Assembly (NCBI GenBank): GCA_002633005.1
Contig: NMRA01000456.1
Span: forward strand, 187,147-251,146
DNA from: Phoronis australis
Taxonomy: Eukaryota; Animalia; Phoronida
Length of the DNA stretch: 64,000 nt
Direction of reading: 5' to 3'
Positions 7,275 to 64,000 of the stretch are shown in pieces. The notes beneath the pieces were generated by a model that searched no databases, was not told the DNA's origin, and saw nothing but the letters and a program-made list of their open reading frames with translations. The position numbers and the translations under genes were made by a program. Within the stretch, counting starts at the first letter, position 1; every line of letters begins with the position of its first letter.

Positions 7275-9949
7275 TACCTGCTTACAATATAGGAAGGGAA
7301 GGAACCTTCATGAAATAGTCTGGATCAATCTAGCTACACAGTTTTGGTGCTGGAGTTAACATACCGGTAAAATATATCATTATAAAGCCATTAAAAGCTA
7401 CGGCTCAATCCACTTTCACCAAGCAGGACTCGATTGGCTTGCAGGTCGCGACCTCAGATATTGTTTGGTGACCTGGTAAAAACCCAGGTTATCAGGACCA
7501 TGTACAAGCACATACTCAAAATACTAGCATAGGAAGTAAAAATTGGAAGGGCCCCTGTATGAGTCACGCACCAGTAAAGTGTCTCAATTATCTGTTATTA
7601 CCCAGGGATGTAAACCAGTGAGGGATATTGGGTGCGAAAGGAGACAATTGTTCGCTACCGAGCACACTAGACACTCAATTTTTCATTTGTCTAAAGAAAA
7701 GAAAAGGTTATCCAGCTAATCTCGGGTGTACTTGGTGGGCATTTGCTGTTTTTTCACTTTTTAAAAGATCTCATTGATTTAATACTTGGCTCTTGACAAC
7801 ATGCGCCATTAGCAGGGGGGAGGGGACTTTCACAAACCTCCCTCCCCTATGAGGTTGCCTTGTTTTGGCAACCTTGTTGGCAACCAATTTTGCCATGTCG
7901 CATTTGGAGAGTTGACGTTATACTAAACACATCTGCCCAAACAAAACCCAAGAAGTACTTCTTTGGAACTGTTTAAGGTCCAACAGTAACCCACGGTGGC
8001 TGATTAAGAGGAGTGACACCCCACCTGCCGAGTCAGGTAACCTGTGTTGTAGTCAGAGAGCATTGTCTTAGACGTCTTATTCCGACTTCCAAATGGATGA
8101 GAAAAAGTGAACATAATTATCACATGGATATAGCTACATTCTCAAGGAGTGATTTTCATAAATAGCCCGATAGTCTTAACTGAAACCTGTGTCAACATGG
8201 CACGGGTACATTTACATTGGCTTATCAGGTAAATACATGGCAAACATAGTACACCACTAGAAAATGGACGTGTTACGCGTACGTGATGTACAGCAATGGG
8301 AAAGCTTAACTAAAAGCAGTAATATATTTTGATTAAATTCATATTCCATGTTGCCAATTCTTGCATACGAATATCAAGATTAGTCTTTGAAGTTTCAATG
8401 GCAATGTTTTTTTTTACTTTGTATTTGTCAAAAACATTGAATTTTGCATTAGACAAACTTTAACCAGTTTCTCTAAGACTGTACGTCCAACAGTTCATGA
8501 GTGTCATATTGGCATGTCAAACAGAACAAACCTTTTTCCATCTGAACCAAACACAATCTAAATTAAGTGGACCAAGAGAACGGTTATTACTCACTCATTC
8601 CATTTTACGTTTGCAATCAATTTTCACACGTTTTGAAAGTTAGGTTGAAGTCTGAAGTACTCTGGTGACACAATCTAGCATCAACTGCATTGATGACATC
8701 AGGTCTGATTTAATACATGGATTGATGGCAGTGAATTCCCACAGCCACTTAAATCCATTGTCACAGTGTAAGTTGGTTAATGGATGTCCACTAATACAAG
8801 TAGGGTTAAAGGCAACAGAATCATCAGAACCCAGTTTTGTCTTCAGTCCAATTGCAGCTCATGAGTAACACCTGCTGACAGGAAACCATCACTTTAAACA
8901 GTGGATCACCACAGCATGACAGCCTGCATTGCTCAGGACACACTGTATTGTCAGGAGGAAAACAATGACCTACACCCAGGTTTTTATACATACATCTACT
9001 CTCTGCATCGTGCCCCAGTTCCAAGCACCACATGAGAACTGAGTTACTTAAATCATTAGTTATTACAGCATGAACAGATTGTCGAGGGTAAATTATTAAA
9101 CCACACATGGACAAGCCACCACCTTTTGGCAAATTTCCCGTATAGCCAAATGTTAACCAGTGTTAAAAATCCACCAGAATCCAGACTTGAAATCGAGATC
9201 ACTGGCGGGTGAGCCTAATATCGAAACTGACTGGTCTAAGCAATTGCCCTTCAGCAAACGATTTGGAGAGGGCTTATTTGATTGCCCAACAAACCAGGAA
9301 GTCACCTGATGCCCCAGCGCGTTATACCTGGCCACATGCTAAAAAACATCCATTGCCAGCCATGTTTATCACAACAATGTCAACATACTTTGTTTGGATA
9401 GTTGATGTATCATATACAATTTGCACACAAAACATAGCATTGTTCCTCAATTTAAATCATCAGTTGAACTTTCCCAGAACAGGAACTTCACAATACCACT
9501 TCACAGCAGCCAGTATCCTGGTAAATGATACAGGTGCTCAAACTATAGTAACTGACCCATACAGTATACTATCTCCATAGTGCCTTGTGGTGACATGTTG
9601 AAAAATTGACCAGAACCAACACTTGTACCCAGGACCTTCAGGATACGAGTATTTACTTTTAGTGTTTGCCGTTTGGCCAAGAGGCAATTGCTCATGGGCA
9701 AGGGATTTAGAAAGGCTTACGTCACACCTACAAGTGACATACTGCTAGTACTAAGTATCACAACACTCCTTCCTCTTCTGTAGAAAAGATGCGCATCCTT
9801 AGGCTACCTGTCTCAGAAACACCCTTAGCATTGCGAGCAATGAACAAATGGTCAGTAGCCAGATGGACTGTGTGAAAAGAAGTTTGATTTCAGGAGCATT
9901 TGTTCAAGCTAGAAAGAGATACAGACATCAAATGCTTCCAAAGTTGTCC

Positions 9950-37700: not shown

Positions 37701-40700
37701 ATTGTGTGACACGTGAATCTCCACAGAAGCGAAAGCGAGGCTGCTGATCTGTCTGCCATATCTGGAGATGCACCGCTAATTCGTACCTCACAGTAAGGAA
37801 GAGCGATCAATGCAGTATCATCAGCATGTATAATTTGGTCATCGGTAGCCAACCATCACTTCTTTCTTAGTGTTCTAGGGTAACCTCTCAATCTACTTAC
37901 CAAACACTGAATCAACTCTCTGAACCACCCAACAATACAGAGGACAGCATTCATTATTCAGAGCTTGATGGGGTGGTTTGGAGTAGTGATTGACAGGCTA
38001 CTTGATAAGGTACCCCAGGCAAGGATTCTTCTATTCAAATTCACTAAAGAAGGTCAGCATGATTTCCAAATAACATGTGAAGCAACAACATGGTTACATT
38101 ACAAATGCTACATTTCTTTAACAAACCTTTCAAATTCAATCCCTTAGTAAAGAATAATAAAACTGAAATGCAACCTTGACAATTCCAATGTTTTCTTTAA
38201 TGTTCAACTTCCTCTTTCTCTTAAATGTGTCAAGATCCCATAGCTGAGCCACATCATTGGATGAGGTGATGGCATAGCGACCAGAGGCATGAATAGAAAT
38301 GGTATGAATAGGGGCACGGTGGCCCTTCAACCAGGCAACCAGTTCCTTGGAATCTGTAAACATATTATAATGTTCATAAGGTTAGTATCGTTCAACCACA
38401 TATCAGTTGTCAACTTCTGTTGAGTAACCTCTGACTTTAGTAAATATTTAGTCTTGTCCACACACAGCCTACCCTAGAACAACTTGCACTGGTGCAACCT
38501 ACCCTACTTTTAAGTGGAGCGTCCACACACACACACACACATATATACGATAACTATAGTTAGGCAGAAGTTGTCGCTCTGTGCATGACGATGGACAGCC
38601 GATGCAAACACGCAGTTGATTACTCAAGCCTTACCCAAATTATGCGACCACACAGCAACTAAAAGTGGCTCAAGTTTCCCTAGAACAGGTTACACTACCT
38701 CGATAAAGTGAACTAAATTGTCACAAGTGGGGCAAAATGCACTAGTTTAGTTAGCGTCCACACAGTCCCCAAACCAAGCGACAACTCGTTCCAGGGGTAA
38801 TTTGTTCCAGGATAAGTCTGTGTGTTGATGAGAATAGTAACTTAACACAATCTTCTCAGCAAAATACACATAAGTGATTGGACTAGACATGGAAGTAAAT
38901 AAACAGATGAGACCCAGCAGTTGCAGATTACCTGAATCAAAACACTTTAATGAGTAGTCTGACATTGCCACCAAGTATTCATTGCGGCGTCTTAGGGAAA
39001 ATGACAGTGATGTGGGCATGCTGCCTGTTCTTTGAAGAAGTGTAAACCTACAAGACAATAATACAGTTCATCCAATTAGAAAAACTAATTTACATTAAAC
39101 ATAAAACATCAACAAAATTGCTTAACATTTTAGAGCAAATTTGATCAGCGCGTAAGATGCATTACGCTTTACGATGGCCAAAAAACTTAGTGTTCAAGCA
39201 AACTTTAAGCATACTGGATATAATACAAAGCGCAGATCACAACTGGTCATCCAAGATATATTGCCAGGCTTTTCACAACTTTAATAGAGTCTATGTGCAC
39301 AAGCCTTAGAAGAGTATCGAAATCGTATTCCACCCACGCACTGACAACATCGTGAACTCTGTACACAAATATGCGACAAGCAGCTGACCTCATTCCCAGA
39401 CAATCTTAAAATTTGATACACAAATAAGTAGAATGTAAGACACTTGATGTGCTCACCTTTATCCAGAAATCAGTTACTAGTACAGATACAACTAGACTTC
39501 CTCTCGTACACTTTAGCTCATACTGCCTGCAAGAGCTAGCTGTCTGGGAGTGATGTCATCATACAAGTTAAGAGCTTCTATTTATAGAACGCACTGCTCG
39601 TCAGATGCCGTGCAGATCTAAAGATGTCCATCATTCTAGTATACAACTTCCCAATATACAATTTATTCAACATCTAATCTTGGGAGTATACCTTTAAGTA
39701 GGGATAATATACGGAATTATAACATGACCTCTGATAGTCTTGCATCCACCCTTTTGATTCTGGTGAACATATCTTACATCTGATTCTTCATCGGAAAATC
39801 AAAGATTAAGTCCTCTGTGTATTTAAATTGCCTCACATAAAAAGGCATGCTTTTACAACCTGAACTGGCATAACTTGCGTTATAATCCAGATGAAGAACA
39901 TAGGCTGTAATCACAATACCCGCTGCTCACAATGTCACTCGAGCAGAACACTTTGTCTTGATTATCAGCAAACTGAGCTTTTGGAATACACGTAATTGAA
40001 ATCATTGAGCAGTAACTGAATAAATATTTGTCACAGTAAATTACAGAAAAGAGAGAAATAAGAGATAATTAGCTTAGAACTGTAAAACAATCTGACTAAA
40101 TGGCTATTTCCGAGTTGTTCACCAGACTCTAATGGTAATATAGAGGCTGCAGGCAAGACAAGTCCTTGTGCTAATATAGAGGCTGCAGGCAAGACAAGAC
40201 CTCAGGTATTTCATATATAAACTGATCTAAACACACCTGTTTTTTGATAAATCAAACATGTGGATGTTACCCATGTGATCTCCAGTGACAAAGCGGTCAC
40301 CACTGACGTCAAATGCGGCATGAAGGAAACGCACTTGTTTGTTAGCAACAGACACAGTGTTGTATATGGACTGTGACACACCCACCAACACCCTGTAACA
40401 CACAAAGATGACAAGCGTTTACTCTGCACCAAATCATTGTGTTGATCTAACGGGCAACTTTCATTATTTATAACCTTTCATTTTGGATATGAAATGTCAA
40501 GTCCGACTGCAACTTCAATATCACCATGACATAAACAGTTGAACAGTCAGGGCCTCATAATTGTATGCCAGAGAAACATGTTTGGTCAGAGACTTCCAAT
40601 GGCAGGATGGAAACCATCAACAAATACCATGGATGCAGGTGCATTATAAGCAGTTATTATAGTAGTCTGTCTCAACATTACAAACTGTCTTCAAGGCTCA

Positions 40701-43799: not shown

Positions 43800-44285
43800 A
43801 AAAACCAGCCGATCTTTACTGGTCTGTACCTCAACACACAATCACGACACAGGTGAAAACTAATCGTTGATCACAGAAACGGCACATGTTTTTCTGTCAA
43901 TGCTTAAAGAAACAACCAAAACATCAACAGGAACAGTTTTCAATATGGCGCGCTTACAAACATTGAAAATAGGGAATAAATCAACAAATTTAAATGTGTT
44001 TTATTGACATTAACAAACAAAATAGATGATAACTTTTCCTATTATTATGAATAAAAATACTACTTAACTTAAAATGTCATTTTATTACTATTAGCGATAT
44101 TATTAGTTAAATGAACTTTTCCACGTTACTAATTTTGCAAAACTCAGATGAAAACTTGCGTCTCAAAACGAGGCAATCAAAACTTACTGGTCCACGTATG
44201 TTAGTGGTTGTGTGTGGGACGTAGCTGGCTTGAACAGAATCTTTTTACCTTCTTACTCTGCGGATCACCTCTAGGATCACGCATA
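43800..44285. promoter_or_regulatory. Probable bidirectional promoter for TBC1D31 (non-coding first exon near 43800-43950) and DERL1, with an ERSE-II-like element
   Basis: The TBC1D31 ATG exon has an acceptor at ~41742, implying an upstream non-coding exon; candidate minus-strand donors at ~43799 and ~43829; ACTGGTCCACGT at 44186-44197. Confidence 0.45.
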
Positions 44286-47200
44286 ATGTCTGGTAACGAA
44301 TTGGGGGATTGGTATCGGGGAATCCCGATGATAACACGATACTGGTTTACTGGTTCCATCGTGTTGCCGCTGATTGGAAAGCTCGGCCTCGTCAGTGCAA
44401 TGACAATGATCTTGAATTACGAGGCAGTCGTGTATCATTTTCACGTGAGTTGATAGTTGGAGGATGGAATGTCACTTCTCATTGTAACGTACCTGCCATC
44501 CTCAAAAACAGATAGGTTCATGTTTCTACTTGGGGAGCTTATCTCTATTCTAACACATTTTATCCAGCCATATTACATTTGCTGGAAGTTACGCGATGTT
44601 CTCACTCTCGCAACACACTTGCGCTTGTCATCTCCGACCTACTCTTTGATTAGCTGCTGCCCTACCTTCTAGTGGGGTCATTTATCAAGTTAATTCAATA
44701 CTGTTGTGAAATGTGCTTCCGGTGAGTCATATATGAGCCTCTGTTAGCCACTCGCTAACAGGCAATTGCCTATTAGCTGAATGGTTAGCACGCTCGCCGG
44801 TTAAATCAGGGTGGCTGGTACGATTCCCGAGGTCGGGCAATCTCGGCTATTACGACAATACTAAAATTGTGAGCCAGATATTAACCAATCACAGCAGGGG
44901 CAGAGCCTGTTGTAGCCATGTGAGTCGCACAGTGGCAAGATTGAGAATCTCACGAAACTACAGACCATTAGACGGCATTAGAGAGTAGTATATTTAAATG
45001 GTGTAAAGCAGGTATGCTTTAAAAAGATCGAAATCAGCTCCAGTGTTCTATGTGTTGTAGACGTGCTTACGGTGAATCATATGAACCTCTTCTAGCCACT
45101 GGCTAAAGGGCAATTGTCTATTAGCTGAATAGTTAGTATGCTTGCCATTTCCTTGGTTGGGTGCTCTCATTAATTATTACACATGCAACCATGTCGCTGT
45201 GTTAGGTGTGATCTTAGAATACTGGAATTCTAGTCTGAGATAACGGAAGCAGTCTCAAAATTAAGCAACCAGCCGTGTTTGTAAAACATGCACTCTGTTA
45301 TCAAAGCAAAACATGTAGCAATAAATTTTATCCCTCCTTGTCTCGGTAATTTGAACGTTGCTAACCATTGAAAATGCATGGTAGTTGATAGCTGAGTTCA
45401 TTTCACTGGATATCTTTACTTGTCGCTTGTATTATGCACTCTGATGTAAAGTTATATGTTATTGTCAAGTGATGTTGAGTATGACTCATAACTGATGATG
45501 ATTAAGCTACTATTTTTGAATCAAAACGCTGATCATGAACACCGTTGTTATTATTTGTGTCGTTATCTTCCTGTTAACCAATGAAACCAATGTAAAACAA
45601 CCACTTTCAGTGCTCAATTTGCCAAAATGCAGGTCACCAATGCAACTTCAGATTGTGTTTGGTGACCTGGGAAAAATCTAAAGTCGTCATGAAGTATGAC
45701 TTTAAATACTTATTACTACTACCAGTATTGGAACCTGGACCAAATTGAAATATTTCGATTTGGGTTGATTCCGTATTGAAATTTGTATATGGCAGCCTGT
45801 ATTGAAATACATTTTATGGTATAAATTAAAACAATAGATTGAACATAAAATTCATGTTGCTTTTTCAACCCTCAACTATTTTTTTATCATTCAAAACAGA
45901 GTCAGAATATAGTTGTCAAAAACTAGCCATAAAGACTTGCATGTTATCTTGATCTAGTTGTGTTGTTCTGTTGCAGGTCTGGCGGCCAGTGACAGCACTG
46001 TTCTATTACCCGTTAACTGTTGTCAAAAACTAGCCATAAAGACTTGCGTGTTATCATGATCTAGTTGTATTGTTTTGTTTCAGATCTGGCGGCCAGTGAC
46101 AGCACTGTTCTATTACCCGTTAACACCACAAACTGGTTTTCACTTTCTCATCATGATGTATTTCCTATATTCATATTCAACAAGATTAGAAACAGGTTTG
46201 TTTTGTCAATTTTCACATTTTATCTTCATCAGATGATTTTTAATAGAATGGCGAGCTTCAGAAGATTTCTCAAGAAAAATTGCAATTGCATCTTTGAATG
46301 ACCAGACTATCGGCGTAAGTCTGTGTAAATCCCCTCACAATATCTGACATTTACAGCACAAGGAAACTTGACACATTCGTTAGTGTGCCAGTCATCCTAA
46401 AAGGATCACCCTTTTTGGCAAGTCATGAAACATCCAGAAAATACTGTTTTTGTGAGATAAAGCAAAATTTAATACTGATGTGTTGAAAAACGAGCAGTAA
46501 ATAATTGTATATGTAGTTTTAGATCAAAGTATACTGTATTTATTTATGTATTGTAATATTTAAAATGAGGGTGGCCTCTTCAGTGATAGCACTGTCCAAA
46601 GGTAGATTTAGGAGTGAATGCCTTAAGTTATAAGCCTGAGAATGGCACAAAATAACAAATTTCACTAGAATTTCTAGTTAGATAATTCTGCACCATGAAT
46701 TCTTTTAATAGAGTTATAAGAAATATTTATTAATAGCTGTGTCATTTCTTGTTTCAGGCGTATTTGATGGCAAGCCGGCTGACTACTTATTTATGCTGAT
46801 TTTCAACTGGCTATGTCTCGTTATCATCGGATTCATCGCAGGAATTATGGTAAACCTGATGTTAACTAATTTTTGAAATTTTGGAAGGAGTTTAAAACAG
46901 ATCCTCCAAGAATTTCAATTGCAATGCTTTTACCGATTGGCTGTACGTTATCATTAATTAATGAGAAAGTTACAAACAACTTCAGCATTCATGTCCTCTT
47001 TAACAGCTGTTTTATGATGAAATAATTTACAAATGATTAGTGTATCGCAGCACGCCACCTGTGACCACATCACGTGACCTAACAAATGTAAGTCTGTAAA
47101 GATTTCTGCCCCAAGCGGGACTCGAACCCGGGACCGTCTGCTACCTGTGCTGACCTTCTAGTCCACTGAGCCATCGGGACCACCGGTCAAATACAGAAAT

Positions 47201-50200
47201 CCAATCGGACTTAGTATCAGGCATCTCACCCTTGGGCCCGGGTTCATGCCCTGATTGGGGTAGAAATCTTTTCAGACTTAGATTCATTAGTTCACGTGAT
47301 GTGGGCACAGGTGGCGTGCTCACCAGACTTAGAAACACTGGTTTAAGAATTACATATTTGTGTAAATGACCAGTATGTGAGCACTGTCTACGACTTTTTC
47401 CACTGCAGTTCTTGTAGTTCGTACTGAACAATCTTGATGTTTTCTTCTGTAGAAAGAGTTTGAACTTAAATGCTTGAAGAGTTAAATGTTCTAATGTGTT
47501 AAGTGTTCTGAAGAGACAGATTGCATTCAAAGTTTTTTATTGTTGCAACCATGAATGAATGTTTCAATTAAACTGTCCCACAGTAGGGGGACTATACCTG
47601 AAACTTTTAAAATGACTGGTAAATTCAATGAGAGATTACAATGTAAAGAGCCTGTTCTTCAAATTAGAACACAATATGACAGAATAGTTAATTTATATTT
47701 TATTAAAGTTTTGACTAGAGTAAATGAGAAGATGATTTTGCTTGATTATTTGAAAATGTCATCAACAAGCATGATGAAATTTCCAACATTTTTTGGCAAT
47801 ACAGTGATTGTTTAAAAATGTTGCTTTAAGATTTCTCTGTCATTTTGTGGCATATCCTGCTTTAACATTAGCTCCAACATTTTGAGGCTTGTCATTTACT
47901 TTCAACCGTCTTCCTTCTTCAAATTTTTTTGTGATCTTGTACTGTCATTTTCAACGCGAGTCTAGTTTATATGCTTGTTTGAGTCTAGTTATANNNNNNN
48001 NNNNNNNNNNNNNNNNNNNNNNNNNNNNNNNNNNNNNNNNNNNNNNNNNNNNNNNNNNNNNNNNNNNNNNNNNNNNNNNNNNNNNNNNNNNNNNNNNNNN
48101 NNNNNNNNNNNNNNNNNNNNNNNNNNNNNTGATCTAGTTGTATTGTTCTGTTGCAGATCTGGCGGCCAGTGACAGCACTGTTCTATTACCCGTTCACAGT
48201 TGTCAAAAACTAGCCATAAATACTTGCGTGTTATCGTGATCTAGTTGTATTGTTCTATTGCAGATCTGGCGGCCAGTGACAGCACTGTTCTATTACCCGT
48301 TAACACCACAAACTGGTTTTCACTTTCTCATCATGATGTATTTCCTATATTCATATTCAACAAGATTAGAAACAGGTTTGTTTTTCAATTTTCACATTTT
48401 ATCTTCATCAGATGATTTCTTTAATAGAATGGCGGGCATCAGAAGATTTCTCAAGAAAAATTGCAGTTGCATCTTTGAATGACCAGACTATCGGCATAGG
48501 TCTGTGTAAATCCTTCACAAAATGTGACAGTTACAGCACAAGGAAACTTGACACATTTGTTAGTGTGCCAGTCATCCTAAAAGGGTCACCTTTTTGGCAA
48601 GTCATGAAAAATCCAGAAAATACTGTGTTTTTGTGGGATAAAGCAAAATTTACTACTGATGTGTTGAAAAACGAGCAGTAAGTAATTGTATATGTAGTTT
48701 TAGATCAAAGTATACTTTGTTTATTTATTTATTGTTATATTTAAAATGAGGGTAGCCTCTTCAGTGATAGCACTGTTTGTCCAAAGGTAGATTTAGGAAT
48801 GAATGCCTGAAGTTATAAGCCTGAGAATGGCGCAAAATAACAAATATCACTAGAATTTCTAGTTAGATAATTCTGCACCATGAATTCTTTTAATAGAGTT
48901 ATAAGAAATATTTATTAATAGCTGTGTCATTTCTTGTTTCAGGCGTATTTGATGGCAAGCCGGCTGACTACTTATTTATGCTGATTTTCAACTGGCTATG
49001 TCTCGTTATCATCGGATTCATCGCAGGAATTATGGTAAACCTGATGTTAACTAATTTTTGAAATTTTGGAAGGAGTTTAAAACAGATCCTCAAAGAATTT
49101 CAATTGCAATGCTTTTACCGATTGGCTTCACGTCGTCATTAATTAATGAGAAAGTTACACTCAACTTCAGCATTCACGTCCTCTTTAAAAGCTGTATTTA
49201 TGATGAAATAATTTACAAATGACTAGTGTATCGCAGCACGCCACCTGTGACCACATCACGTGACCTAACGAATGTAAGTCTGTAAAGATTTCTGCCCCAA
49301 GCGGGACTCAAATCCGTGACCTTCTGCTACCTGTGCTGACCTTCTAGTCCACTGAGCCATCGGGACCACCGGTCAAATACAGAAATCCAATCGGACTTAG
49401 TATCAGGCATCTCACCCTTGGGCCCGGGTTCATGCCCTCATTGGGGTAGAAATCTTTTCAGACTTAGATTCATTAGTTCACGTGATGTGGGCACAGGTGG
49501 CGTGCTCACCAGACTTAGAAACACTGGTTTAAGAATTACATATTTGTGTAAATGACCAGTATGAGCGCTGTCTACGACTTTTTCCACTGCAGTTCTTGTA
49601 GTTCGTACTGAACAATCTTGATGTTTTCTTCTGTAGAAAGAGTTTGAACTTCAATGCTTGAAGATTTAAATGTTCTAATGTGTTAAGTGTTCTGAAGAGA
49701 CAGATTGCATTCAAAGTTTCTTATTGTTGTAACCATGAATGAATGTTTCAATTGAACTGTCCCACAGTAGGGGGACCATACCTGAAACTTTTAAAATGAC
49801 TGGTAAATTTAATGAGAGATTACAATGTAAAGAGCCTGTTCTTCAAATTAGAACACAATATGACAGTTAATTTATATTTTTTTAAAGTTTTAAAGTTTTG
49901 ACTAGAGTAAATGAGAAGATGATTTTGCTTGATTATTTGAAAATGTCATCAACAAGCATGATGAAATTTCCAGCATTTTTTGGCAATACAGTGATTGTTT
50001 AAAAATGTTGCTTTAAGATTTCTCTGTCATTTTGAAGCATATCCTGCTTTAACATTAGCTCCAACATTTTGAGGCTTGTCATTTACTTTCAACCGTCTTC
50101 CTTCTTCAAATTTTTTTGTGATCTTGTACTGTCATTTTCAACGCGAGTCTAGTTTATATGCTTGTTTGAGTCTAGTTATAATAATGTGAATCTAGTTATA

Positions 50201-53200: not shown

Positions 53201-54409
53201 GCATCCGCAGCTGTTTTTCCTACCCCTTACAGGATCTTTGTGAAATTGAGCAAGTTTATTTCTATGAGCGTGACAACGGATGACGACAACTTGTGGACAT
53301 ATGTGACTAAACCGCTGTACCTCCCCCAGTGGCAGTTTTAGTTTTTACGATCTTGATAGGTGTGTTCCTATTGAGGAGAGCATTGCTGACTTGTTATGCA
53401 TCCCTTGGGGGCTATTTAAAGTTTACAAGCATTGCACCCTTTAGTGGGAATTTCCAAAATAGTAATCATCCCTTGTATCTGTGTCATATGCGATTCACAC
53501 TTTGGGCGCATGTCACTGCACCGCGTTGCTCATGTATTGTTGAAAACTGTAAAGAATGCTTCATTGTCTTTCAACCATGATTGAACTATCAACAACTTGT
53601 GGCTTTTTTAATATAAGTGAAATTGGTTTGGTGGTTACGAGATATCTGTTGTAACTCATGTGTTGTCAAATGTTTTAAAGAAATCAAGCATAGCAGTCTG
53701 TATACATGTTATGAGCACCCCATAGGTAAACATTGCAGGTCCGTTAAAGGGGGTACAACGACACATAGCCAAACATTACAAATCACTAACAGGGATACAA
53801 CCACATACATAGCCAAATCCTGCAGACTGCAGATCCACTGAAGGAGATACAACCACACTCGCAGTCAAACATAGCCAAACATTGCAGATCCACTAAAGGG
53901 TACACACACACACACACACACGCACACACACGCACCCACACGCACATAGCTGAACACTATAGATCCATTTAAGGGAATACAATCACACTCACTGACACAT
54001 ACATGTCAACATTCTCGTTCTTCATGACTGCTGTGGTGTGGCCCCAGAATGACTACTTTACCTTCTTAAAACTTTTTTACTTATTTTATGGTACTTAAAC
54101 TTATTTTGATTGTTCATTTTTGCTTATTAAAGCTTCTGTTTATTTCTTTTTGCTTAGTAAAACGTCTTTCACTTATTGGAACTTGTTTTACTTTAAATTT
54201 TCTTTTTTGTTGTTACTTGTACATGATAGAGGGCACTAGTTGTCTTTACTCTACCTTTGTTGATTCACAGCTACCATTATCTCCCTAACCGCCGTGGTGG
54301 TGTGTCTGGGTTTGGCATGGCTCCATCGAGCAGGAGACGACCGGATGATGATGGACAGGATGGTGGTAGACACACATGGGGAGCAGGCAACCAGCTGGGC
54401 GGTAACTGA
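44286..54409 (+). CDS. DERL1: Derlin-1 (ERAD rhomboid pseudoprotease), 253 aa, 7 coding exons
   Basis: Exons 44286-44444, 46084-46195 (copy 48264-48375), 46758-46849 (copy 48943-49034), 50386-50481, 51810-51862, 52181-52291, 54271-54409. Motifs: IPMITRYWF, IWRPVTALFY (WR motif), FDGKPADYLFML, FWFGTQFKAMYLPWV, GILVGHLYFFLMFKYPQDFGG, C-terminal SHP box RHTWGAGNQLG. Confidence 0.96.
44702..44857 (+). mobile_element. Solo LTR of the tRNA-bearing TRIM with a perfect 4-bp TSD
   Basis: ATAC|TGTTGTG...TATTACGACA|ATAC; tRNA-like segment ~44768-44839. Confidence 0.85.
45053..45183 (+). mobile_element. Diverged, internally deleted single LTR of the same TRIM family
   Basis: TGTTGTAGACGTGCTTACGGTGAATCATATGAACCTC..CTATTAGCTGAATAGTTAG; B-box region missing. 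Confidence 0.7.
45912..46125 (+). repeat. 107-bp tandem duplication spanning the DERL1 intron1/exon2 acceptor
   Basis: GTTGTCAAAAACTAGCCATAAAGACTTGC...CAG|(G/A)TCTGGCGGCCAGTGACAGCACTGTTCTATTACCCGTTAAC twice; also at 48130-48303. Confidence 0.92.
45950..50180 (+). repeat. ~2-kb near-identical duplication (45950-47993 and 48130-50180) flanking an N gap at 47994-48129
   Basis: Both copies contain DERL1 exons 2 and 3; differences are scattered SNPs and small indels in the introns. Confidence 0.92.
47049..47320. mobile_element. Inverted-repeat element made of two divergent tRNA-derived SINE-like units (copy at 49235-49506)
   Basis: 66-bp imperfect terminal inverted repeats; minus strand has A-box TGGCTCAGTGG and B-box GGTTCGAGTCC; plus strand has a degenerate GGGTTCATGCCC B-box. 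Confidence 0.7.
50145..50365. repeat. ~22-bp minisatellite just upstream of DERL1 exon 4
   Basis: (GTGAGTCTAGTTATATGGTAAT)n, degenerate. Confidence 0.9.
52015..52112. repeat. Four ~27-bp tandem units
   Basis: GGCTAGTCTCGTCTAGTG core repeated. Confidence 0.8.
52331..53541 (+). mobile_element. Degenerate Helentron-associated non-autonomous element (HINE/DINE-1-like) with an internal ~145-bp tandem array
   Basis: 5' subTIR ATGTGCCCA followed by a partial inverse TGGGGGCTCAT and a GTCC-like microsatellite remnant; 3' subTIR TGGGCGCAT plus imperfect palindrome GCACCGCGTTGC; T-rich flanks. Confidence 0.55.
53740..53995. repeat. Degenerate 45-70-bp tandem repeats with an embedded (CA)n
   Basis: Recurrent CATAGCCAAACATTGCAGATCCACT..GGGATACAACCACAC. 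Confidence 0.65.
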
Positions 54410-54984
54410 ACCAACCACTCCTTGTTGCCATGGTACATGTGACTTTATAAGGAAAAACATGGCGGTGAAGGAAATGCAACTAAAGTGTCCAACAGCTGTG
54501 TTGTTTCAAAAGTGGAGCTCTTTCGTTTTTATCATTTTCTGGGATAACGCAAACCATCTGAAATCTGTTATATAACTATTTCTTGCCCGCACTCTGACCT
54601 GGTTAGTCATAACTACATGACTGTTGTTCATTATCATGTTTAATTCTCAACCAGACCATTTCATTCGTTGCAAAACCAACTTAATACATTGTGACTTTTG
54701 ACTTTGTCTTATTCAGTGCAGCATCTGCTGGCTGAAAATTGCTTGTACCATATTTATTTTATGTGTAAGTATTGTAAATTTCCTTCTTCTGGTCATATAT
54801 GTCTATGCTTATTCACTCTTATTTACTGAATAATTGCAATGATTGTTTACAAGCTGTAAATGTCATGTTAAAAGTTGTTTCATTACAGTAAAAGTACAAA
54901 GTCTTAACAACCAATTTTGTAATCACTATTACTGTAAGTCCGTTTTTCGGAAATAAAGAATTAATTGAAAATTTATGATGTGCA

Positions 54985-57900
54985 TCAATCCCTCTTACTG
55001 GCGTCAATCACTCTAATGTCGCTGTTATAACCATTGGCTTCTGATTTGTCTTCTGGTTGAATTTTGGAGAACATCTCTTTCCGAAGTTGAGAACTGCTTA
55101 TGCCCTGTGTGTAGGGAAAAAATCGGATTGGCATCAGTGACTCAACTGTGGAGCGTGATGGAAAGTCAGGCATGTCATCTCCACGCACGTAGAGGGCTGT
55201 TTCTTCCTCCTCCAAGTAGACAATGCAGGTGATGAAGTTTGAAGGGTCAGTGCTGGAGATGCAATATACCTGCAGATGATGATCATATCAATGTACATGA
55301 TAATTTGGTTGGCATGCCTTGCAAGTGTAAAAACAAACGAAAAATCTTGGTTTCTTTCATGGCTTACTGTCTTGGATGATGTTAATGTTTGAGGGCTTTT
55401 TGGATTTTTGGCCAGTGGTCGGAATATTCAGCTTCATCCCGGTTTTCAACTCTAGATTAAAACATACTTTTAAAGGGTATTGTTTGATCATTTCCTAATC
55501 ATGACACATACCACACCTAGAAAGCAGATCATTACCATTGGACAACATATTCATTACTGACCTGATCAGCGTACTGTTTGACGTTCAACATACGTTTCTC
55601 TGTACTGTCTATTGGGAACTTTTTCTTTAATTCAAAGTAGCTGCGAGAGTCGTGTAGTCCAACAATGACCTAAATGAAAGATTGACTTATGAATTCAGTC
55701 GCCAATGGAAAAATGGAAGCTTAATTACATCTAATATCGGACTTGTCTGACAAAACGTTCCAACCTGCGACATCGACAATGTGATCTGGGTACCAATTCC
55801 ATTATTGGTTTAACTGGTGAATTGCACGATACTATAATGTATTCTAAGAGTTGGTTTGTTGCTATTGGGTAAAGAAAATGCGATGCAGATTATTCATTAC
55901 AATAGTCTAAAACTGAGACTAAATCGTCTGCTATTGGCAAACCTCTGTAACTTGTCAGAACTGAGTCACGTTTTCATTGACAAACCTCGAACTACATGGC
56001 ATCTATGAAATCACGATAACGCTTACAGCTTGAAAGTTGACACTTCTCTGACCACACCTGTTTGCCCAGTTGTCTCATGCGGTGCATCAACTTCATGTGA
56101 CCTCGATGGAAGAGATCAAAACAGCCTATCGTATACACTTTGTCAACGCGGCCATCAAATGCTATCGAGGGAAGTGAATGACGTCTTGTGTGCAGTCTCT
56201 CCCTTTGTTCGTCCTCGCTGTCATCCCCAGTCTCACTACTTACAGATGACGTGTTACTACTCGTTCTGAAAAATCGTGATATTCCGTCATTGGAAACGAC
56301 AGGATGACGAACGTTGAAGGTACCAAAAACTGCAGGTGTACTATGCGCATTTAAAACTGTGTTTAATTTATCATGTCCGAAAAATATTAAAGCAACATCT
56401 CGCCCTGCTTAGCTGGCTAAACCGAAAATCAATATTAGGCTTCTTGGTGTCATAAAGTCGGCCTCGTAATATTCCTTTCCCAAATAGAATTTTCTGTTAA
56501 CAAGAACACCACAACCGTCAGCGACTCGAGCATAAGCGACTTCGAAAATGTACGCATTGCCTGTTAACTTAGGTTACCGACTCATTCGGCAATAAATCGA
56601 GATAGGATGAGCGTGCTAATGTTTAAAAAGAGCATCGGTTGAGATTGTGTAGGATTTCGTTGACAAGTCGTATTTAGCCAAATATATACAAAATTAGAGA
56701 TTTTAATTCAGTAAAAGTATATTTTCTGAAAGTAAAAGGCTTTCAGAATGTGATTTTTTACTTTACCATGTCTTTTCAGTACAATTTAACAAAAAAGGAA
56801 ACGTCCGTTGATAGCAAATCAATGGCATGATCAAATTATATTTGATATAAATGTTCAAGATGAGATATCGAGAAGGTGTTAAAGTTTTCTAAAATATTTC
56901 GCTTATGTTTTATGCAACTTAAAGCGTTTTTTCATGAAATCATAAATTATAGCCTTTCTTTTTCAAAATAGTACCTCCTGCAAAAATGAAAAAAATTAAA
57001 AACAAGAGCTTTTTGGAGAACAACGCTGCATCTAAAAGTTTCTTACGTTTTAAAGTTTTCAATCGGCCGTTTCTGAGATGTGATGTTAGCCATTTGGACA
57101 TTTTGTACGGTCCTGCATAACTTTAATATTCAACATTGACACCTAAACTGCGACGAAATGCCCCTTTAAACAATTTTGTCACTCGGCATACCTTACAACT
57201 ACCGGTTATACGCCGATTGCCAGTCAAATTCCATAATTATTTGTATGATTAATGAGGAGATGGTACATTTAAATAATGTCTCATTTTCCTGCATACTTTT
57301 TCAAAGTTGGTACACTTGTCCGAGTGTAAGCGTTCGAGCGATGTCTAACGCCATTCGACACAGATTCATTTTGTGGTACGTTGGCTTCGGTTTCAACAGA
57401 GTCAGCGGCGGTCTTGGCCTAAGGGTAACAAGGCCTAATTAATGTCAAATAACGAAAAACATGTTGTCAAACTATGGAGCATTCCCTATCAGCTAGGGGG
57501 TGAATGAATCTGGCCCACATGTACAGAAAATAATTTTACTCACGAAGGGTTAGAGTTTTCGATTATCACCGCTTGGCTGTGGCTTAGCCGCGGAGAGCAC
57601 AACGGGGTCATGTCCCCCCCCTCCTCTGTTCATTACAAAAGAGACCCCCGTCGAAACTCATTTCAAGCTTGCCACTCATTCTAGCCCTCACCTCCCTCTC
57701 CCCCAATCGTCAAAAATTTCGCGTTTTGCCCAGTTGTTTAAAAACAGTGCCTCTTGGTACTTCTGAAGCTGGACATTCAATTGCTTTCCACAACATGCCC
57801 GTGCATAAATTGATCGCACCTGAAACACTTCTGTAATATCTAGTTAGTGATCTAAGCCTCCGCCTATACTGCTGAAAATGCATGGCACACATTTCGTTCA

Positions 57901-60900
57901 CGTTATTGTTGCCGGTCTTTAATTGGCAGGTTCTCCTAGATGAATGGGCTGTGGGCACATGGATACATGTATCCTGTCACTGTAAAGCGTACGCCATAAA
58001 AATGTCAACATTGAGCTAGCACCAAATTGGTATAAACACTGATAACCCGAGAAATTAGTCTTCAGCCAGTCTGAGGATTAGTTTCATAATGCACTCATGC
58101 TATACGTTTATTTGTGCCATGCCTTGAAACTCTGTCATAGATTCAAAACAATCACAAAAATCGAATTTCATGAGAGCTTCACCACCGACATTAAGATTGT
58201 CAAGTGACAGAATGACTGAATAGCCGGTGTAGCATTGAATTTAACGTACAGAATTTTCAGCCAGTTGGAGAAATGTCCTGGGGAATATTTTTTTCAACAG
58301 TTTTGTGTAGCCAAAGCAAGTGATTTGAGTTTAACGTGACACGTGCTCAGACACCATTTCTAAGTGAGTGCAATTTGACGGCGGTTGCAGAAAATTGATG
58401 ACGAATCGCACGAGGATGCGGAAACTTTTTTCGGTCATGAGCGGTCAATTATACTTTTTCGGCCTTATCGTGTGGATGTCGAAACAAAAAAGTTTTATTG
58501 TTACAATAGCAGGCTCCAACTAATTCCACAGACCCGATCTTTTGGCTCACCTTTTGGGACTGGACCTTTCTCGATCCATCCTCGTTGTATAGGGGCTTGT
58601 TGGAATAGTTTCTCTCTGTGTGGTATTCTACAGTCGCCATATGCGATGATAGGAGATATTGGGTTTTCGACTTAATTCCCCTTGCCTCAAGTTTCCTTGA
58701 CAAACTCGCGTGCGCAAGACGAACACTAAGTAACAAGCATACGATTCCCAATTGTCCGGCTGCAATGCATATTGAAATGAAATAGAATTACGCAGTCGGA
58801 CAATTTAGAAAAAAATAAGTCATGTTTCTTACTATTTTTGTACTCAGATGAAAATAAATAATCAAAAACATGTAATCTACACAAAAATCGTTTTCCACAA
58901 TGATAGTAGTTTAAGTGGTCTATCCTAAATAGAAATTTCCGTCTAGTCAGTGCGCGAGTGAGCGAAAATTGTCATCTCGACGTTGCTATTCTCAAACACC
59001 AAGAAGTGACACGTCCACACATGCAACTCATTATGTCCAATGCAATGAGAACGCGCCAGAGCTATACTTCCAAGAGAGACCGGCTCTCTCCAGCTCCAAA
59101 CAAGAGGAGCGCGTCTTTGGACAAATGCTTGGAATACTATCGCCAACGAAGGACTTACCCCAGCTCTCCATCGGAACTACATGCCCCTGAGATAGTGCCA
59201 GGAACGCTATTCCCAACGATTCCAACTTCTCTTTCAGTTTTCCTTCCATAACTGACTTTGTACCGGAAGCAACATTGTGAAACTCTTTCCCTTTTTTCTC
59301 CAAATGTCTTCTCTTGTGTGCCCTGAAACGAACGTTTTTATCGAGACGTACGCCATCCATGCAGTTTCCAACGTGTGTCTCTTCTCGTACTATTGCAAAC
59401 TCAGTTACACGTTGTACAAATACAACTTTATTTTCAGCTTTACGGGCAAAACTTAGACGAAAACAGTGAGGGGAACTGTTGAGTTTGTGTGGGCAGGGGG
59501 GAAATTCTGTACAGGTTACACAGGGAGTACTAAATAAAAGTATTCTAAAACATTAAACTAATTCCAGGATACGATTTTCTGGAAACTATTAAGTGGTGTT
59601 TAAAGTTTTCATTCCAGGAACTCCAAAGTTAGTTTTGTTGTGCCTAGAAGTTAAAAAAGTTCCATCTTATTGTAAATAACAAACATAGATATTTTAGTTT
59701 TGGCACCAAATCCAACCAGCTCTGAAATTCTAGCACAAATATCAAGAATTGTTAACAAAGTTGAAGTGCCGAAGTGGAGAGCTATTCAAACGTGTTTTCG
59801 ACTTGAATGCAGTGATGAGAATTTGCTCATTCTGACGGAAAGCATCCAAAGGTTGTAAAAGCGAAAGCTGTACAATGTCTGAAAAATCCATCAGTCGGTT
59901 CATTATTTTCTGGTATTCATATTTCAGAGTATATTTGTCAACAGTAATGAGAGACCCAATATCTGATTTGATACCCTATTGTATATTTACACGACAAGGA
60001 CAGCAGCCAGTTAGTACATCATAACACAGCTAATCGTCAAACAAGACGTCATAGCATACATGGGGCCCGTTCCCACAAAACTGACTTAGCTAAGACAAAT
60101 CTTAAATTTTAGGAAATTTTAAAATGAAAATTATATTTGTCACAAAACCAATTCAAGAACGAGATCTTAAGTTTGACTTAAGTGTTTGACATAAATTTTG
60201 TCTTAATTTTGACTAACTTACCGAATATGGAAGTTTCAAAGTTTGGAAGTTAAGACAAATCTTAAAATTAAGTAAAAAATGAACTTAAGTCAGTTTCTTA
60301 AATCAGGCCCATGGTCCTCATGTTTTCCGATGTCGAAGAACGCAAGTTGGCTAAGGCTAGATCATTATGGCATTTTTGTATTCGAGTGCAATTACATAGG
60401 CCTATTGACTTCGTTGTAAGTCACTAACGGTATAATAACAACTACTTTGACAGTACTTACAGGTAAAAGTAATCCTGAACGCGCACAACTCCAAGGACTG
60501 CCTCGTACAGCATAATGACCACGGACACAGTGAGGTACAGCGTTGTTTGCATCAGCGTCATCTCGGAGAAGTTAGTTACAGTCAGTATGGTCCAAAGACA
60601 TGTGACGTTAACTACCTGGAATTTCAAATGGCGCACTTGATTTCACGATTAGGCCGGATGGTTTCTCCTCCTTGGAGAAAATATGTTGAGAAGAAGAGTT
60701 TCAGGAAGACTCCGAGGAGTTGCGTACATGACAACTGCCAGGACAGAAAGTCATACACATTGTTAGTTGCGAGTTGAAACAGATACAATCTACAACTTTC
60801 CGCTAAAATCCATAATGCGAATTGTTCATCCAAGCAGTACAAAGGCTGTTATTTCTGTAGAACTACAAGAAAAACTTTGACCTTTATTAGTGTTACCTTG

Positions 60901-62389
60901 TCGCAAAAGGCGTCCATGAAGCCTCCCAACAGCGGGTCGTCGACTGGGCCATAAATCCGCGCGTGCACTTTAGCCACGATCCCATCAACGTGGTCGAGGT
61001 AATCGTGCAATACAACCATCCAAAAGACATTCCAGAAATAGCCATATCTAAAAGATTGACGAGTTTCCTATAATCAAACATTCTTAGATAAGTTCACATA
61101 TTTTGGAAATACTCCAAACTTTAAGTCGCTTTCGAGATGTTTTTTATTATCCATTTTGGTGCTCTCGGGCGAGAGCGGCATATCAAACTGTAGTCCCTTC
61201 AGCCCAGTGATCAAGAGCCTGCCTTAGTGTATTGGGCACGAGGTTCCCCACCTCAAGTGCATTATCGGAAAAAAAACACTTTTTGTGATAACAACACTAG
61301 GTCGGATATGAACTGAGAACCTCCGCTGCCGCAACCAAACGCTCTGTTGGCTGAATTAAATCTCAAACGTGAGAGAAATTTAAGCGTATTTGACTGGTCA
61401 TGAGTCAACGACCTTGATTTTAGCACTGTCTGGCAGAAAACGGCCATAACTGGCGATTTGATTTGAAATAAAATCACAAAATACAACAGATTTTATTGTT
61501 GTATATGTCTGGTCCTTGCTAATAACTTCAACAAGTCTATCCCATCCATTTCACTTTCATTGAAAACCTCTTCGAAGAAACACCAGGCGACCACTTAACG
61601 GCGAGATTTCATCAAATTAAACCGTATAGTAGCACCGGTTTTTCCTACTTTTACACGACAAAAAAGCTCTTGACACGGAATGAGTTGACACGGTGCGAGT
61701 TGATCCATGTCCGTATATATCAATGGAGTTGTCACATTTACTCCAAACTTTCGAAAGTTGATGTTCCACGCGGTCGTAGTTTTCGGTTTTTAATAGTTTT
61801 AATCTAGTTCAGGATGACCATTAACAGGTACTAAATCACAATCGAATGTTACTGCTTCCGCGTGCCTCCAGTTTTAACAGTGAAGCTATGGAAGTAGAAC
61901 ACATGTGAGATACTTACTTAAGACAGACTGCTATTGGTATGATCAGAATGGTCCTCGCCCATGAAACAATATTTGCGGAGAAAACTGTGCGGGAAGCTCC
62001 GTTTTCAGCCCCGCAGGAAAGTAATATTATTGGGGGGGGGGGGGGGGGGGTGGGGGGTGGNTGTTTTACTCTGCAACATAGCTCGTGGCGTACCCCGGGC
62101 AAAATAGATTACGATAAATGCTGATAGTTCTCGGTATCTTGGCAACAACAGGAGCCGTCACCAGTTGTATTGGTGTATACACGAAGACGTCATACCAATT
62201 AACCTGAAAATGAAAACAAGTGACTGATCGTTACAATTTTCTGGTACAAATCCCCTGGCTTTAATTTGAATTAGAAATTGGGATGAGGTTAATTAACACA
62301 AAGAATGCAAACACTTAACTTACCAGCACAAACAGCAGTCTCTCGATGATACGTACAAGCCAAACAACTGCTTTCAGAGGATGAGTCAT
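54985..62389 (-). CDS. Fused CDP-alcohol phosphotransferase (N-terminal, PgsA-like membrane domain) and HxGH cytidylyltransferase (C-terminal, TagD/GCT-like), ~541 aa, 11 coding exons
   Basis: Exons 62389-62324, 62203-62113, 61984-61918, 61047-60897, 60615-60461, 59322-59159, 58759-58551, 57418-57297, 56265-56058, 55669-55562, 55269-54985, all GT-AG and in phase. Motifs ANIVSWARTILIIP, DHVDGIVAK..GGFMDAFCD, EGKLKEKLESLGIA, then VYTIGCFDLFHRGH, VIVGLHD, YVRGDD, PYTQGISSSQLR. The start codon is less certain. Confidence 0.88.
56391..57165. mobile_element. Possible Kolobok-type non-autonomous DNA transposon
   Basis: TTAA|AGCAACATCTCG ... CGAAATGCCCCT|TTAA: TTAA flanks, AG..CT termini, imperfect TIR. 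Confidence 0.45.
60062..60311. mobile_element. ~250-bp MITE with GGGGCC termini (PIF/Harbinger-like)
   Basis: GGGGCCCGTTCCCACAAAACTGACTTA ... TAAGTCAGTTTCTTAAATCAGGCCCC; internal TAAGACAAATCTTAA repeats. Confidence 0.65.
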
Positions 62390-64000
62390 GGTTGTTTCAC
62401 GATTGGTTACCTAAAACAAACAATTATAAATGAATAGACCCTCTTCGAAACGAAATAAAAAATGATAGAGCTGATCTGAGGAACGACACTTGGCGAAATC
62501 GACCGAACACGTAAATTCGAGTACGAAGGCAGCAACACCAAGGACGATCACTATGACGACCCTTATACCTGGACGCCTACGGCGATAGCAAAAACGACAT
62601 CGAAGACTATTGACTACACAGCAATCGAAACTTTTCGACAATGTAAACCCCGACAGCAATGACAGCATGCACTACCGAAGGCGACACTGATGCCAACCCC
62701 AGCACCAATTATACCACTTAATGACGCAGATGATGCCGTATTGTACGCGATTAATTCAACATTTTGAAGTACCAGTCGTCTAAACCCACTCAGTCAACAG
62801 ACTTCGAAAATGGACGAGAAACTTTTATGCAAACATGAAGGTTTTACAGAGTAAATTGATTAAGATTTCAAAACCAAGAGAACAGTTTTTTGGAAATGCA
62901 GAATTAGTTCTCCAGGTACCCTTCTCTAGAAAGTGATAATGGAGTAATCTGTCGCTCCGTCTCTATTTTTGAAAATGTACATCACTATATGAACTTGACG
63001 GAGATGAACCTAATGCTAGCATCAATTGCTGCAATGGTTCATTAGTGTCTGATTTATATGTTTATGTGTCAACGAAAATCGACCGATTCATTGACGAATT
63101 TTTATAATTAGAAGGTAATCTTGTAGGAAATTGATGATGCTTCAGTGAACTTATGTACACAGAACTTCGGGGAAATCTCTATTATCTGACCTCAAACAGC
63201 TTAGTGAACTTGACGATGTATTTGCCAGTCTGAAAAAGTCTAATAAAATGGTGTTTCCGTGAATTTTGACATTGATGACATTATGTCAGTTCTATAGTAG
63301 TTGCGACCCCCCCCCCCCGGGGGAGGGCCAAGCACCAGAAACTTGTTTTAATATGCGTTCTTCAACAGAACGTATTTTTGAACACTGTTTTAGGCAACAT
63401 ACTAATAAAACCACTTCCTGATAAAACGCATCCTAACTGAAAGTTATTGCGTGCGTATCGATCTCGACTTCCGTCGTGTTCTGGGCAAAAATGGGGTATG
63501 TCAACGAAAACGTCGCAGTATCCGCTATGAACGGGTGGCGGTTGAAATTTCGTATAGCGGTAGGACCCGTACTAGACGATTTAGAGCGTAATGTGATGGA
63601 AAATGTGATCGTGACGAAAAGAAATAGGCAATCAGAGATTAAGAAGTTACAGGCTGTACGAAAATTTCATGTTAGTCAGCAGATAAGAAATGCGGCCTGT
63701 ACCTGCGAACAAACAAAATTCTTCACAATTGAGACAGACATACTTAGGGAAATTTATTTTGTCAAGTATCTGCCAATGGCAAAAACGTTAACGCGATGAC
63801 AATAGGAGGAAAACCAAGGTTTCATAGAAAACGAACAAATATGGCTATGTTATGCAAGGAGACTTTGGAAACCATGGTATCCAAGGCTGAAATGTGAAAC
63901 GCCAACATCATTACATGTACTAACAAAGCAACCAATGCGCGCAGGTGAGTTGTTATTGATACGAGAGGCTGAGAAGCCTGGAATGATGCATAAATTGAGT

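Follow-up and report, generated by a model that had tools for sequence, protein, structure and literature searches.

A predicted fusion of a membrane CDP-alcohol phosphotransferase domain with an HxGH cytidylyltransferase-type domain in Phoronis australis, from an uncharacterised eukaryotic family

Does a single animal gene encode two consecutive steps of CDP-alcohol metabolism, and which product would such an enzyme release? The question is raised by a minus-strand gene at 62389–54985 of the 64,000 nt stretch of Phoronis australis DNA analysed here (assembly GCA_002633005.1, contig NMRA01000456.1, positions 187,147 to 251,146; hereafter the window). Its 11 exons, separated by 10 GT-AG introns, form a single stop-free open reading frame (ORF) of 556–570 amino acids, the range reflecting splice-site choice at introns 2 and 8, in which an N-terminal CDP-alcohol phosphotransferase (CAPT) membrane domain is joined by a linker to a C-terminal cytidylyltransferase (CT) domain of the HxGH type. 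The family is uncharacterised and extends beyond animals, and comparison of sequences and folds leads us to favour, tentatively, a two-step phosphodiester synthase that would yield a soluble diester of the diglycerol-phosphate type.

The original prediction of 11 in-phase exons was borne out by the GT-AG joins, by the undisrupted frame, by tblastn with the Lingula homologue, which matched nine of the 11 exons in order (47–78% identity; exons 1 and 8 gave no separate match), and by RNA reads over seven of the 10 introns. The complete CAPT motif, D-x2-D-G-x2-A-K-x14-G-x3-D-x3-D, was located as predicted at 60995–60902 in exon 4, and the intact HxGH at 56108–56099 in exon 9, with the PYTQGISSS tail beginning at 55116 in exon 11. 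The spliced model shared 44–48% identity with full-length animal homologues over most of its length, and 53% and 65% with Lingula when the two halves were compared separately.

RNA evidence was drawn from three stranded runs of the same species label (about one fifth of each) and one contig set, over 54400–64000. Reads across the gene were of minus-strand origin at a depth of ca. 0.1–3; at least three reads of a single run support each of introns 1, 3, 4, 6, 7 and 10, and two reads support intron 5. No junctions were found for introns 2, 8 and 9 among those listed from the three runs and the contig set. As intron 8 joins the two halves, the chain of reads between the two domains is not closed in P. 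australis. One transcript spanning both domains nevertheless appears by far the likeliest, since the exon 9 frame holds no Met upstream of HxGH and the homologues are single chains. The alternative of two separate transcripts in P. australis, or of a window allele disrupted by the repeat at exon 2, is in line with the three introns lacking listed junctions and with the stop at 57281 which the exon 8 frame meets if intron 8 is retained; it is made very improbable by that Met-less frame, by fitting splice phases, by 73 single-chain homologues, and by strand and depth that are similar across both halves.

‘Intron 2’ holds a multi-copy repeat, and next to it 179–210 reads in each listed row have loose ends, at 62118/62119. 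Homologues code uninterruptedly through this site (genomic read-through of P0021, and tblastn), and the segment carries a G-run and an N; ‘intron 2’ is thus a recently gained intron or else an insertion carried by this haplotype. No second copy of its repeat was found in the window.

Table 1. Exons of the fused gene and the segment termed ‘intron 2’, in window coordinates, with domain features and read support (TM, transmembrane helix; SaPgsA, Staphylococcus aureus PgsA).
Feature	Position	Strand	Remarks
Exon 1	62324..62389	-	Start codon at 62389; N-terminal amphipathic helix; intron 1: 4 and 5 reads in two runs
Exon 2	62113..62203	-	Juxtamembrane helix; 3′ end uncertain
‘Intron 2’	61997..62112	-	GT-AG; multi-copy repeat, G-run, one N (62061)
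Exon 3	61918..61996	-	TM1, conserved Asn = SaPgsA N5; acceptor 61996 or 61984; intron 3: 5 reads
Exon 4	60897..61047	-	TM2–TM3, full CDP-alcohol phosphotransferase signature and family-specific HDxLDH
Exon 5	60461..60615	-	End of TM3 and TM4, Arg = SaPgsA R118; intron 4: 3 reads, intron 5: 2 reads
Exon 6	59159..59322	-	TM5 with GKLKE (SaPgsA K135/K137; T138 replaced by Glu); intron 6: 2 and 6 reads
Exon 7	58551..58759	-	TM6 and start of linker; intron 7: 7 reads
Exon 8	57297..57418	-	Linker; donor 57297 or 57316; acceptor side read-supported, donor side without reads
Exon 9	56058..56340	-	Ser/acidic end of linker, RxxSxP (from 56186), start of HxGH domain; acceptor 56340 or 56329
Exon 10	55562..55669	-	CT domain; invariant Lys (TagD K44 position) and Arg (R55 position)
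Exon 11	54985..55269	-	End of CT domain (RGDD, PYTxGISS) and stop codon; intron 10: 3 reads

Relatives were collected with exon 4 (151, of which 120 listed) and with the Aplysia protein (122, of which 120 listed), in a word-limited search in which many rows are unnamed. A motif scan of the Aplysia-query list assigned 73 of 120 proteins to the order of the window protein (CAPT-CT), which upheld the claim of a fusion within one protein, 17 to the reverse order (CT-CAPT), and 30, many of them fragments, to a single motif. The 73 include P0171, which is longer than the others and atypical. Named CAPT-CT members come from molluscs of three classes, Lingula, Tubulanus, bdelloid and monogonont rotifers, and Branchiostoma, and one further record with the id scpid is presumably the sponge Sycon. 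CAPT alone was found in Balamuthia and in a record with the id Nk52, which we take to be Creolimax, and CT alone in Amphiura. The reverse order occurs in Amoebophrya and Pelagomonas, and in Pycnococcus/Pseudoscourfieldia, whose CT is yet of the same type as that of the window. No named cnidarian, ciliate, annelid, arthropod, nematode or vertebrate was present among the matches in the two 120-row lists. In the ESM Atlas the family forms one eukaryotic cluster of 60 members. With Balamuthia, Creolimax and the alveolate and pelagophyte forms included, the invertebrate-specific product that had been proposed is not supported.

All named records are labelled ‘uncharacterized’ or ‘hypothetical’, or bear names transferred from other proteins, PCYT2 and HldE among them, and no characterised orthologue was found in the searches made, as predicted. 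The fusion architecture was not found described in the literature searched, in which subscription papers are thinly covered, and the family is unmentioned in the available portions of PMC3315573, PMC12168105, PMC8233357 and PMC10649022.

Several relatives depart from the two-domain plan. P0130, P0381 and P0183, which comprise a Branchiostoma lanceolatum paralogue whose CAPT signature is degenerate and, in Lingula and Amphiura, records of the CT alone, may be half-gene paralogues. P0227, a protein of 382 amino acids on a 16.5-kb contig, combines a divergent CAPT member with a third kind of CT on a long branch outside both CT clades, possibly a third independent fusion. In a sister CAPT subfamily (P0262, P0266, P0269, P0279, P0285) the C-terminal domain resembles by eye a CT remnant lacking HxGH; profile tests of the C-terminal half of P0266-type proteins did not bear this out (probability 1.6%, Pfam blank).

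The membrane domain is weakly detected by Pfam in the exon 4 frame alone (PF01066, E 0.007) and reaches 28–35 bits, against a cut-off of 22, in five of five whole homologues; run exon by exon, Pfam overlooks the CAPT, since its signal depends on the domain being spliced together. The signature D-x2-D-G-x2-A-R...G-x3-D-x3-D is complete with Lys in place of Arg. Hydropathy alone undercounts the helices; the AlphaFold2 models, which are those of two homologues and not of the window protein (Tubulanus, mean pLDDT 81.5; Balamuthia, 83.1), both have six helices besides a juxtamembrane helix and a hairpin, and both end after helix 6. Their best fold matches were SaPgsA (Z 15.4, root mean square deviation 3.2 over 168 residues) and the phosphatidylinositol phosphate (PIP) synthase of R. 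salmoninarum (15.1), ahead of M. tuberculosis PgsA1 (13.3), IPCT-DIPPS (12.3) and human CHPT1 (9.0). TM-scores were 0.59–0.66 to PIPS/PgsA versus 0.22–0.27 (on target length) to CEPT1/CHPT1, and Foldseek agreed, with no row at E <0.001.

Aligned end to end with SaPgsA, the window CAPT keeps N5, D57, D60, D78, D82, K83, R118, K135 and K137, and carries His for F58, Tyr for R110, Glu for T138 and Lys for Y181; pocket residues were mapped by this sequence alignment and not by superposed pockets. Across the 73 CAPT-CT proteins, K83 is retained in all, R118 in 72 and GKxK in 71, and the F58 position is His in 72 of them and in 17 of 17 CT-CAPT proteins; stand-alone bacterial relatives shown have Phe. 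An invariant His-Asp pair lies one turn ahead of the first motif Asp. In SaPgsA, K83, R110, K137 and R118 make up the glycerol-3-phosphate site, T138 lies at the 2′-OH and F58 touches CDP-diacylglycerol (CDP-DAG) (PMC8640168; this and the other papers are cited for the portions of their text that were available). Of these four basic residues, three are kept by alignment, R110 being Tyr. Lipid-acceptor enzymes usually have three to four additional C-terminal helices, and the hydrophobic groove of CDP-DAG enzymes gives way to a small polar pocket in those with a soluble donor, namely Af2299 with CDP-glycerol, and DIPPS (PMC4634129). We read this as a CAPT which would take a phosphomonoester acceptor and a polar donor: the retained K83, R118, K135 and K137 point to the phosphomonoester, His at the F58 contact to a soluble or polar donor, and six helices without the additional ones of DAG-accepting enzymes to a soluble acceptor.

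The same likeness allows for a PgsA-type phosphatidylglycerol phosphate synthase using CDP-DAG, with the tethered CT acting separately, e.g. in supplying CDP-glycerol to LicD/fukutin-type glycan enzymes. SaPgsA is the top fold match and its glycerol-3-phosphate residues are largely kept, the closest outgroup, a bacterial family, stands alone without a CT beside it, and members of the CT clade adjoin LicD in virus-type contigs (see below). We consider this improbable in view of the F58 replacement in both fused forms and of the TIGR00560 scores (29–31 bits in the scoring eukaryotic members, up to 48 in bacterial relatives, cut-off 109; no listed match for five animal-type fusions), and if the chemistry were not shared, repeated fusion with different CTs would be difficult to account for.

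A quick tree of 86 hand-chosen CAPT domains, composed without CRLS1, CDIPT, CEPT1 and CPES, unites the animal sequences with Balamuthia and Creolimax (SH-aLRT 92) and sets them beside the reverse-order alveolate/pelagophyte group (91). Because of this grouping, the horizontal acquisition into animals that had been suggested is not supported; a bacterial-type family that is either old in eukaryotes or was spread among them would fit. The separate phylogenies place the animal CAPT with protists and the CT apart from TagD; we propose neither a donor nor a direction of transfer.

Of 1.84 billion unnamed representatives, only 561 matched the CAPT profile at E ≤0.001, and the nearest Atlas cluster is mostly Candidatus (Ca.) Magasanikiibacteriota. 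The nearest outgroup is a rare stand-alone bacterial family of seven loci, three titled Ca. Magasanikbacteria and four Gammaproteobacteria, three of the latter sharing the Magasanikbacteria gene order. None of the seven has an adjacent CT, and the 10 PF01467 matches in five of these genomes lie elsewhere. Among 301 genomes of the Ca. Magasanikbacteria phylum only one matched the family, namely the seed itself. In six loci of small-genome bacteria (L002–L006, L008, ca. 5800–7700) the CAPT member adjoins another gene that resembles PgsA more closely to the ordinary type (confirmed with Pfam in three loci), surrounded by 700-amino-acid membrane proteins without Pfam family and by dTDP-sugar genes. 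The only CAPT match in a virus contig (L001) was at chance level and was rejected.

The CT domain exceeded the PF01467 cut-off on exon 9 and presents HxGH, the catalytic Lys, GxD, the (R/Y)TxG(I/V)S(S/T) tail and a Rossmann-like fold; PMC6060094 describes HxGH and the RTEG tail, and what such lysines do. All 27 aligned rows retain H14, H17, K44, R55 and D94 (TarD numbering). The closest folds are those of TarD and of the Fom1 CyTase (both Z 14.6), followed by HldC (14.2) and PCYT2 (12.2), and PCYT structures in general (19–22% identity, Z 11.5–12.4) rank below the bacterial enzymes. For both domains, then, the predicted compact folds of bacterial type were recovered.

A careful tree of 63 CT domains, which held two TagD rows only and neither PCYT nor Fom1, placed the window CT in a separate clade of 44 rows (99/100, stem 2.0) apart from TagD, and grouped the reverse-order CTs with TagD/TarD (97/92). 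TIGR01518 gave 30–40 bits for window-type CTs (five of five homologues) versus 100–113 for the reversed form (cut-off 165). ‘TagD-like’ thus describes the fold correctly and the clade membership incorrectly. As tree clades and profile scores agree, the same CAPT family is joined to two CT lineages, which argues that the steps of the two domains are coupled. No named prokaryotic window-type CT was found among 78 shorter matches, plasmid and phage records reached at most 34% identity over the full domain, and no row named ethanolamine-phosphate cytidylyltransferase occurred among the listed full-length or shorter CT matches.

The tie with Fom1 brings in a lipid head-group synthase, transferring CMP-2-aminoethylphosphonate (AEP), CDP-ethanolamine or CDP-glycerol onto ceramide, DAG or a phosphorylated lipid to form ceramide aminoethylphosphonate (CAEP), ceramide phosphoethanolamine or related lipids. 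Molluscs are rich in CAEP. Moreover, PF01467 domains are fused to phosphoenolpyruvate (PEP) mutase in some phosphonate clusters (PMC8942020). Such a synthase seems unlikely, given the six-helix architecture without lipid-acceptor helices and the absence of phosphonate genes among the scanned neighbours of the bacterial and virus-type loci; additionally, no cnidarian, ciliate or arthropod is named among the matches listed, although Acropora has the full AEP pathway (PMC3640398). Among the three product candidates proposed earlier, CAEP is accordingly weakened by helix number and by missing cnidarian and ciliate names, and the glycerophosphodiester seems best supported.

Members of the window-type CT clade also occur fused to SPX, in all 16 long ORFs scanned from about 45 similar loci among the best 80, which links the clade to phosphate. 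This fusion is widespread in marine eukaryote contigs (L047, L050, L052, L055, L058, L067–L069, L077, L081, L082, L086, L090, L095, L097, L098; P0189, P0391) and combines the window's CT clade with an RTE-type tail; it is unmentioned in the available portion of the diatom SPX paper PMC8233357.

Free-standing members of the clade were found in low-GC contigs, with LicD directly upstream on the same strand in eight of 10 distinct contigs (L020:4220-5417, L021:3679-5414, L042, L044, L061, L062, L063, L065) and without it in L019 and L091. Three of the low-GC contigs come from a virus collection, and the others we take to be giant viruses from GC content, gene layout and tree position. The pair may constitute a two-gene CDP-alcohol cassette for glycan decoration; in L044 a methyltransferase is added, and in L021 a ceramidase lies ca. 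2 kb upstream of LicD. LicD enzymes use CDP-alcohols, classically CDP-choline, and these neighbours therefore favour CTP over ATP and a small alcohol over heptose. Together with the TarD, Fom1 and HldC folds and the Fom1-like PYT tail, they suggest that the window-type CT clade makes a CDP-alcohol.

The choline preference of LicD likewise speaks for an amino-alcohol handled by the same two-step logic, with a soluble diester of serine/ethanolamine-phosphate type, a choline diester or a mixed glycerol-amino-alcohol diester as product. Glu at the T138 position and the invariant His-Asp pair could bind an amine, and human PCYT2 is the closest solved sequence to the CT by whole-chain score. Per domain, however, B. 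subtilis TagD scores higher (62 bits) than the PCYT2 N-domain (51 bits), the reversed form carries a TagD-clade CT with the same HDxLDH, and the basic acceptor pocket suggests a phosphomonoester; an amino-alcohol is similarly unlikely to the lipid product.

The linker between the domains is disordered (pLDDT <50 in one homologue's model) rather than strongly low-complexity, its composition entropy being 3.9 bits versus 4.2 for the whole protein; the earlier description of a low-complexity linker is corrected to this extent. The RRHS site noticed there is part of an RxxSxP motif, which 38 of 74 same-order proteins, the window protein among them, carry directly before the CT; shuffled linkers averaged 0.95, with 6 as the highest value, in a comparison whose related sequences are not independent. 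The motif ranges over molluscs, the brachiopod, the nemertean and bdelloid rotifers and is missing from the lancelet and sponge same-order proteins. It fits the mode-1 14-3-3 consensus, and there is a weak to moderate case that phosphorylation at this site would control the protein.

The two-step phosphodiester synthase which we favour would operate as follows. The C-terminal HxGH domain would use CTP to activate a phospho-alcohol of small size, most likely glycerol-3-phosphate; the N-terminal membrane domain would transfer the CDP-activated unit onto a second phosphorylated, water-soluble alcohol, again most likely glycerol-3-phosphate; and a subsequent phosphatase step would give the diester of diglycerol-phosphate type. 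In hyperthermophilic archaea, CDP-glycerol and glycerol-3-phosphate are likewise converted to diglycerol phosphate. Confidence differs between the parts: it is strong for CTP as the nucleotide, the coupling of the two domains in sequence is quite probable, a soluble donor with a phosphorylated soluble acceptor is suggested with moderate confidence, and glycerol as the alcohol with weak to moderate confidence; a role as phosphate store or compatible solute is speculative.

Several observations weigh against this proposal. The window CT lies outside the TagD clade and has I/T/P at TarD E71/W74/K77, residues which we take to act in glycerol binding, so that glycerol is in effect borrowed from the reversed form. 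R110 of PgsA is replaced by Tyr, and the T138 position is Glu in 71 of 73 CAPT-CT but Gln in 16 of 17 CT-CAPT proteins; the two forms may thus take different acceptors, and the Glu could bind an amine. PIP synthase ties with PgsA and the adenylyltransferase HldC with TarD, and TIGR02199 (RfaE) outscores TIGR01518 on window-type CTs. The CAPT-only records of Balamuthia and Creolimax, the CT-only record of Amphiura and the intron 8 junction missing from those listed in the RNA runs belong here as well, and glycerophosphoglycerol accumulation in these animals was not found reported in the literature searched.

A wider scheme, doubtful as a whole, would be an ancient, unrecognised eukaryotic pathway for de novo synthesis of a soluble glycerol phosphodiester as store or solute, with a fused enzyme, gating by a 14-3-3-type site in animals and by SPX elsewhere, and with the giant-virus CT feeding LicD. 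It would cover molluscs, rotifers, lancelets, sponges and many protists, SPX gating acting on the related CT in marine microeukaryotes.

Animal CDP-alcohol chemistry as taught comprises Kennedy-pathway lipids, phosphatidylinositol and cardiolipin. The present family points to a further branch of bacterial style in many invertebrates and protists, with both steps in one protein and a soluble domain of ca. 135 amino acids, whose product is likely made by a route not known from vertebrates; to our knowledge, nobody has named that product. The genes are candidates for phosphorylated metabolites still without identity, or for CAEP synthesis if the lipid alternative is true. Three such unidentified metabolites have been reported in Dreissena, which carries the fusion (PMC7345047). 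Furthermore, the PCYT2 and HldE database labels on these proteins are corrected, and SPX phosphate sensing and giant-virus LicD genes are tied to the same new CT clade.

Around the gene, a plus-strand transcript end (54400–54918, depth 35–68) stops ca. 70 bases from its stop codon; the two are convergent and their 3′ ends may overlap. Introns 5 and 8 carry high-copy repeats (60061–60299 and 56672–57150), the former with short inverted ends (60088–60116 / 60248–60276) and an appearance like that of a miniature inverted-repeat transposable element. Exons of a Derlin (DER1) gene at 44205–48479 (+) and a weak WD40-repeat exon at 38139–38381 (-) represent ordinary eukaryotic neighbours without connection to the pathway.

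Compared with known systems, the Kennedy pathway runs the same two reaction types in sequence, with separate proteins (PCYT2/PCYT1 and CEPT1/CHPT1/SELENOI). Its transferases have three or four extra C-terminal helices where the homologue models end at helix 6, and their TM-scores are the low ones given above. The PCYT2 label of one Branchiostoma record looks like a mis-transfer, since the PCYT2 match is 25 bits over 68 residues. CPES ranges over arthropods and cnidarians, neither of which is named among the matches listed; the CPES motif quoted in the available part of PMC9550178 is the generic one.

SaPgsA (PDB 7DRJ), the best fold match, has nine aligned key residues in common with the window CAPT, which differs by its extra N-terminal helix and hairpin and by the CT fusion. 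TagD/TarD (PDB 1COZ, 2B7L) has the same fold as the window CT (TM-score 0.78–0.82 on target length) and shares H14, H17, K44, R55, D94 and the SS/ST tail with it; RTEG is replaced by YTxG, E71/W74/K77 are not kept, and the clades are separate. The Fom1 CyTase (PDB 5X3D), a 2-hydroxyethylphosphonate cytidylyltransferase, has the same PYTxGISS tail, with 22–25% identity and fusion to PEP mutase instead of CAPT.

The nearest parallels are IPCT/DIPPS of Archaeoglobus fulgidus (PDB 4MND) and Af2299 (PDB 4O6M, 4Q7C), which likewise combine a cytidylyltransferase or similar domain with a six-helix CAPT matching the homologue models of this family. Both use a soluble CDP-polyol donor, Af2299 having been solved with CDP-glycerol (PMC4634129, PMC8633023). 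They are prokaryotic, with the opposite domain order and 12–15% identity. 4MND was matched through its membrane part only, its soluble domain being of IPCT type (PMC8633023) where the window protein has HxGH at the C-terminus, and NF041135 (IPCT/DIPPS) gave 13–17 bits where listed, against a cut-off of 580; Af2299 as a TagD-type fusion was dropped, its domain being of IPCT type according to the same source. What seems new is an HxGH domain C-terminal to CAPT in eukaryotes, visible in domain databases and not found described in the literature searched, and the working principle is known already from IPCT/DIPPS and Af2299.

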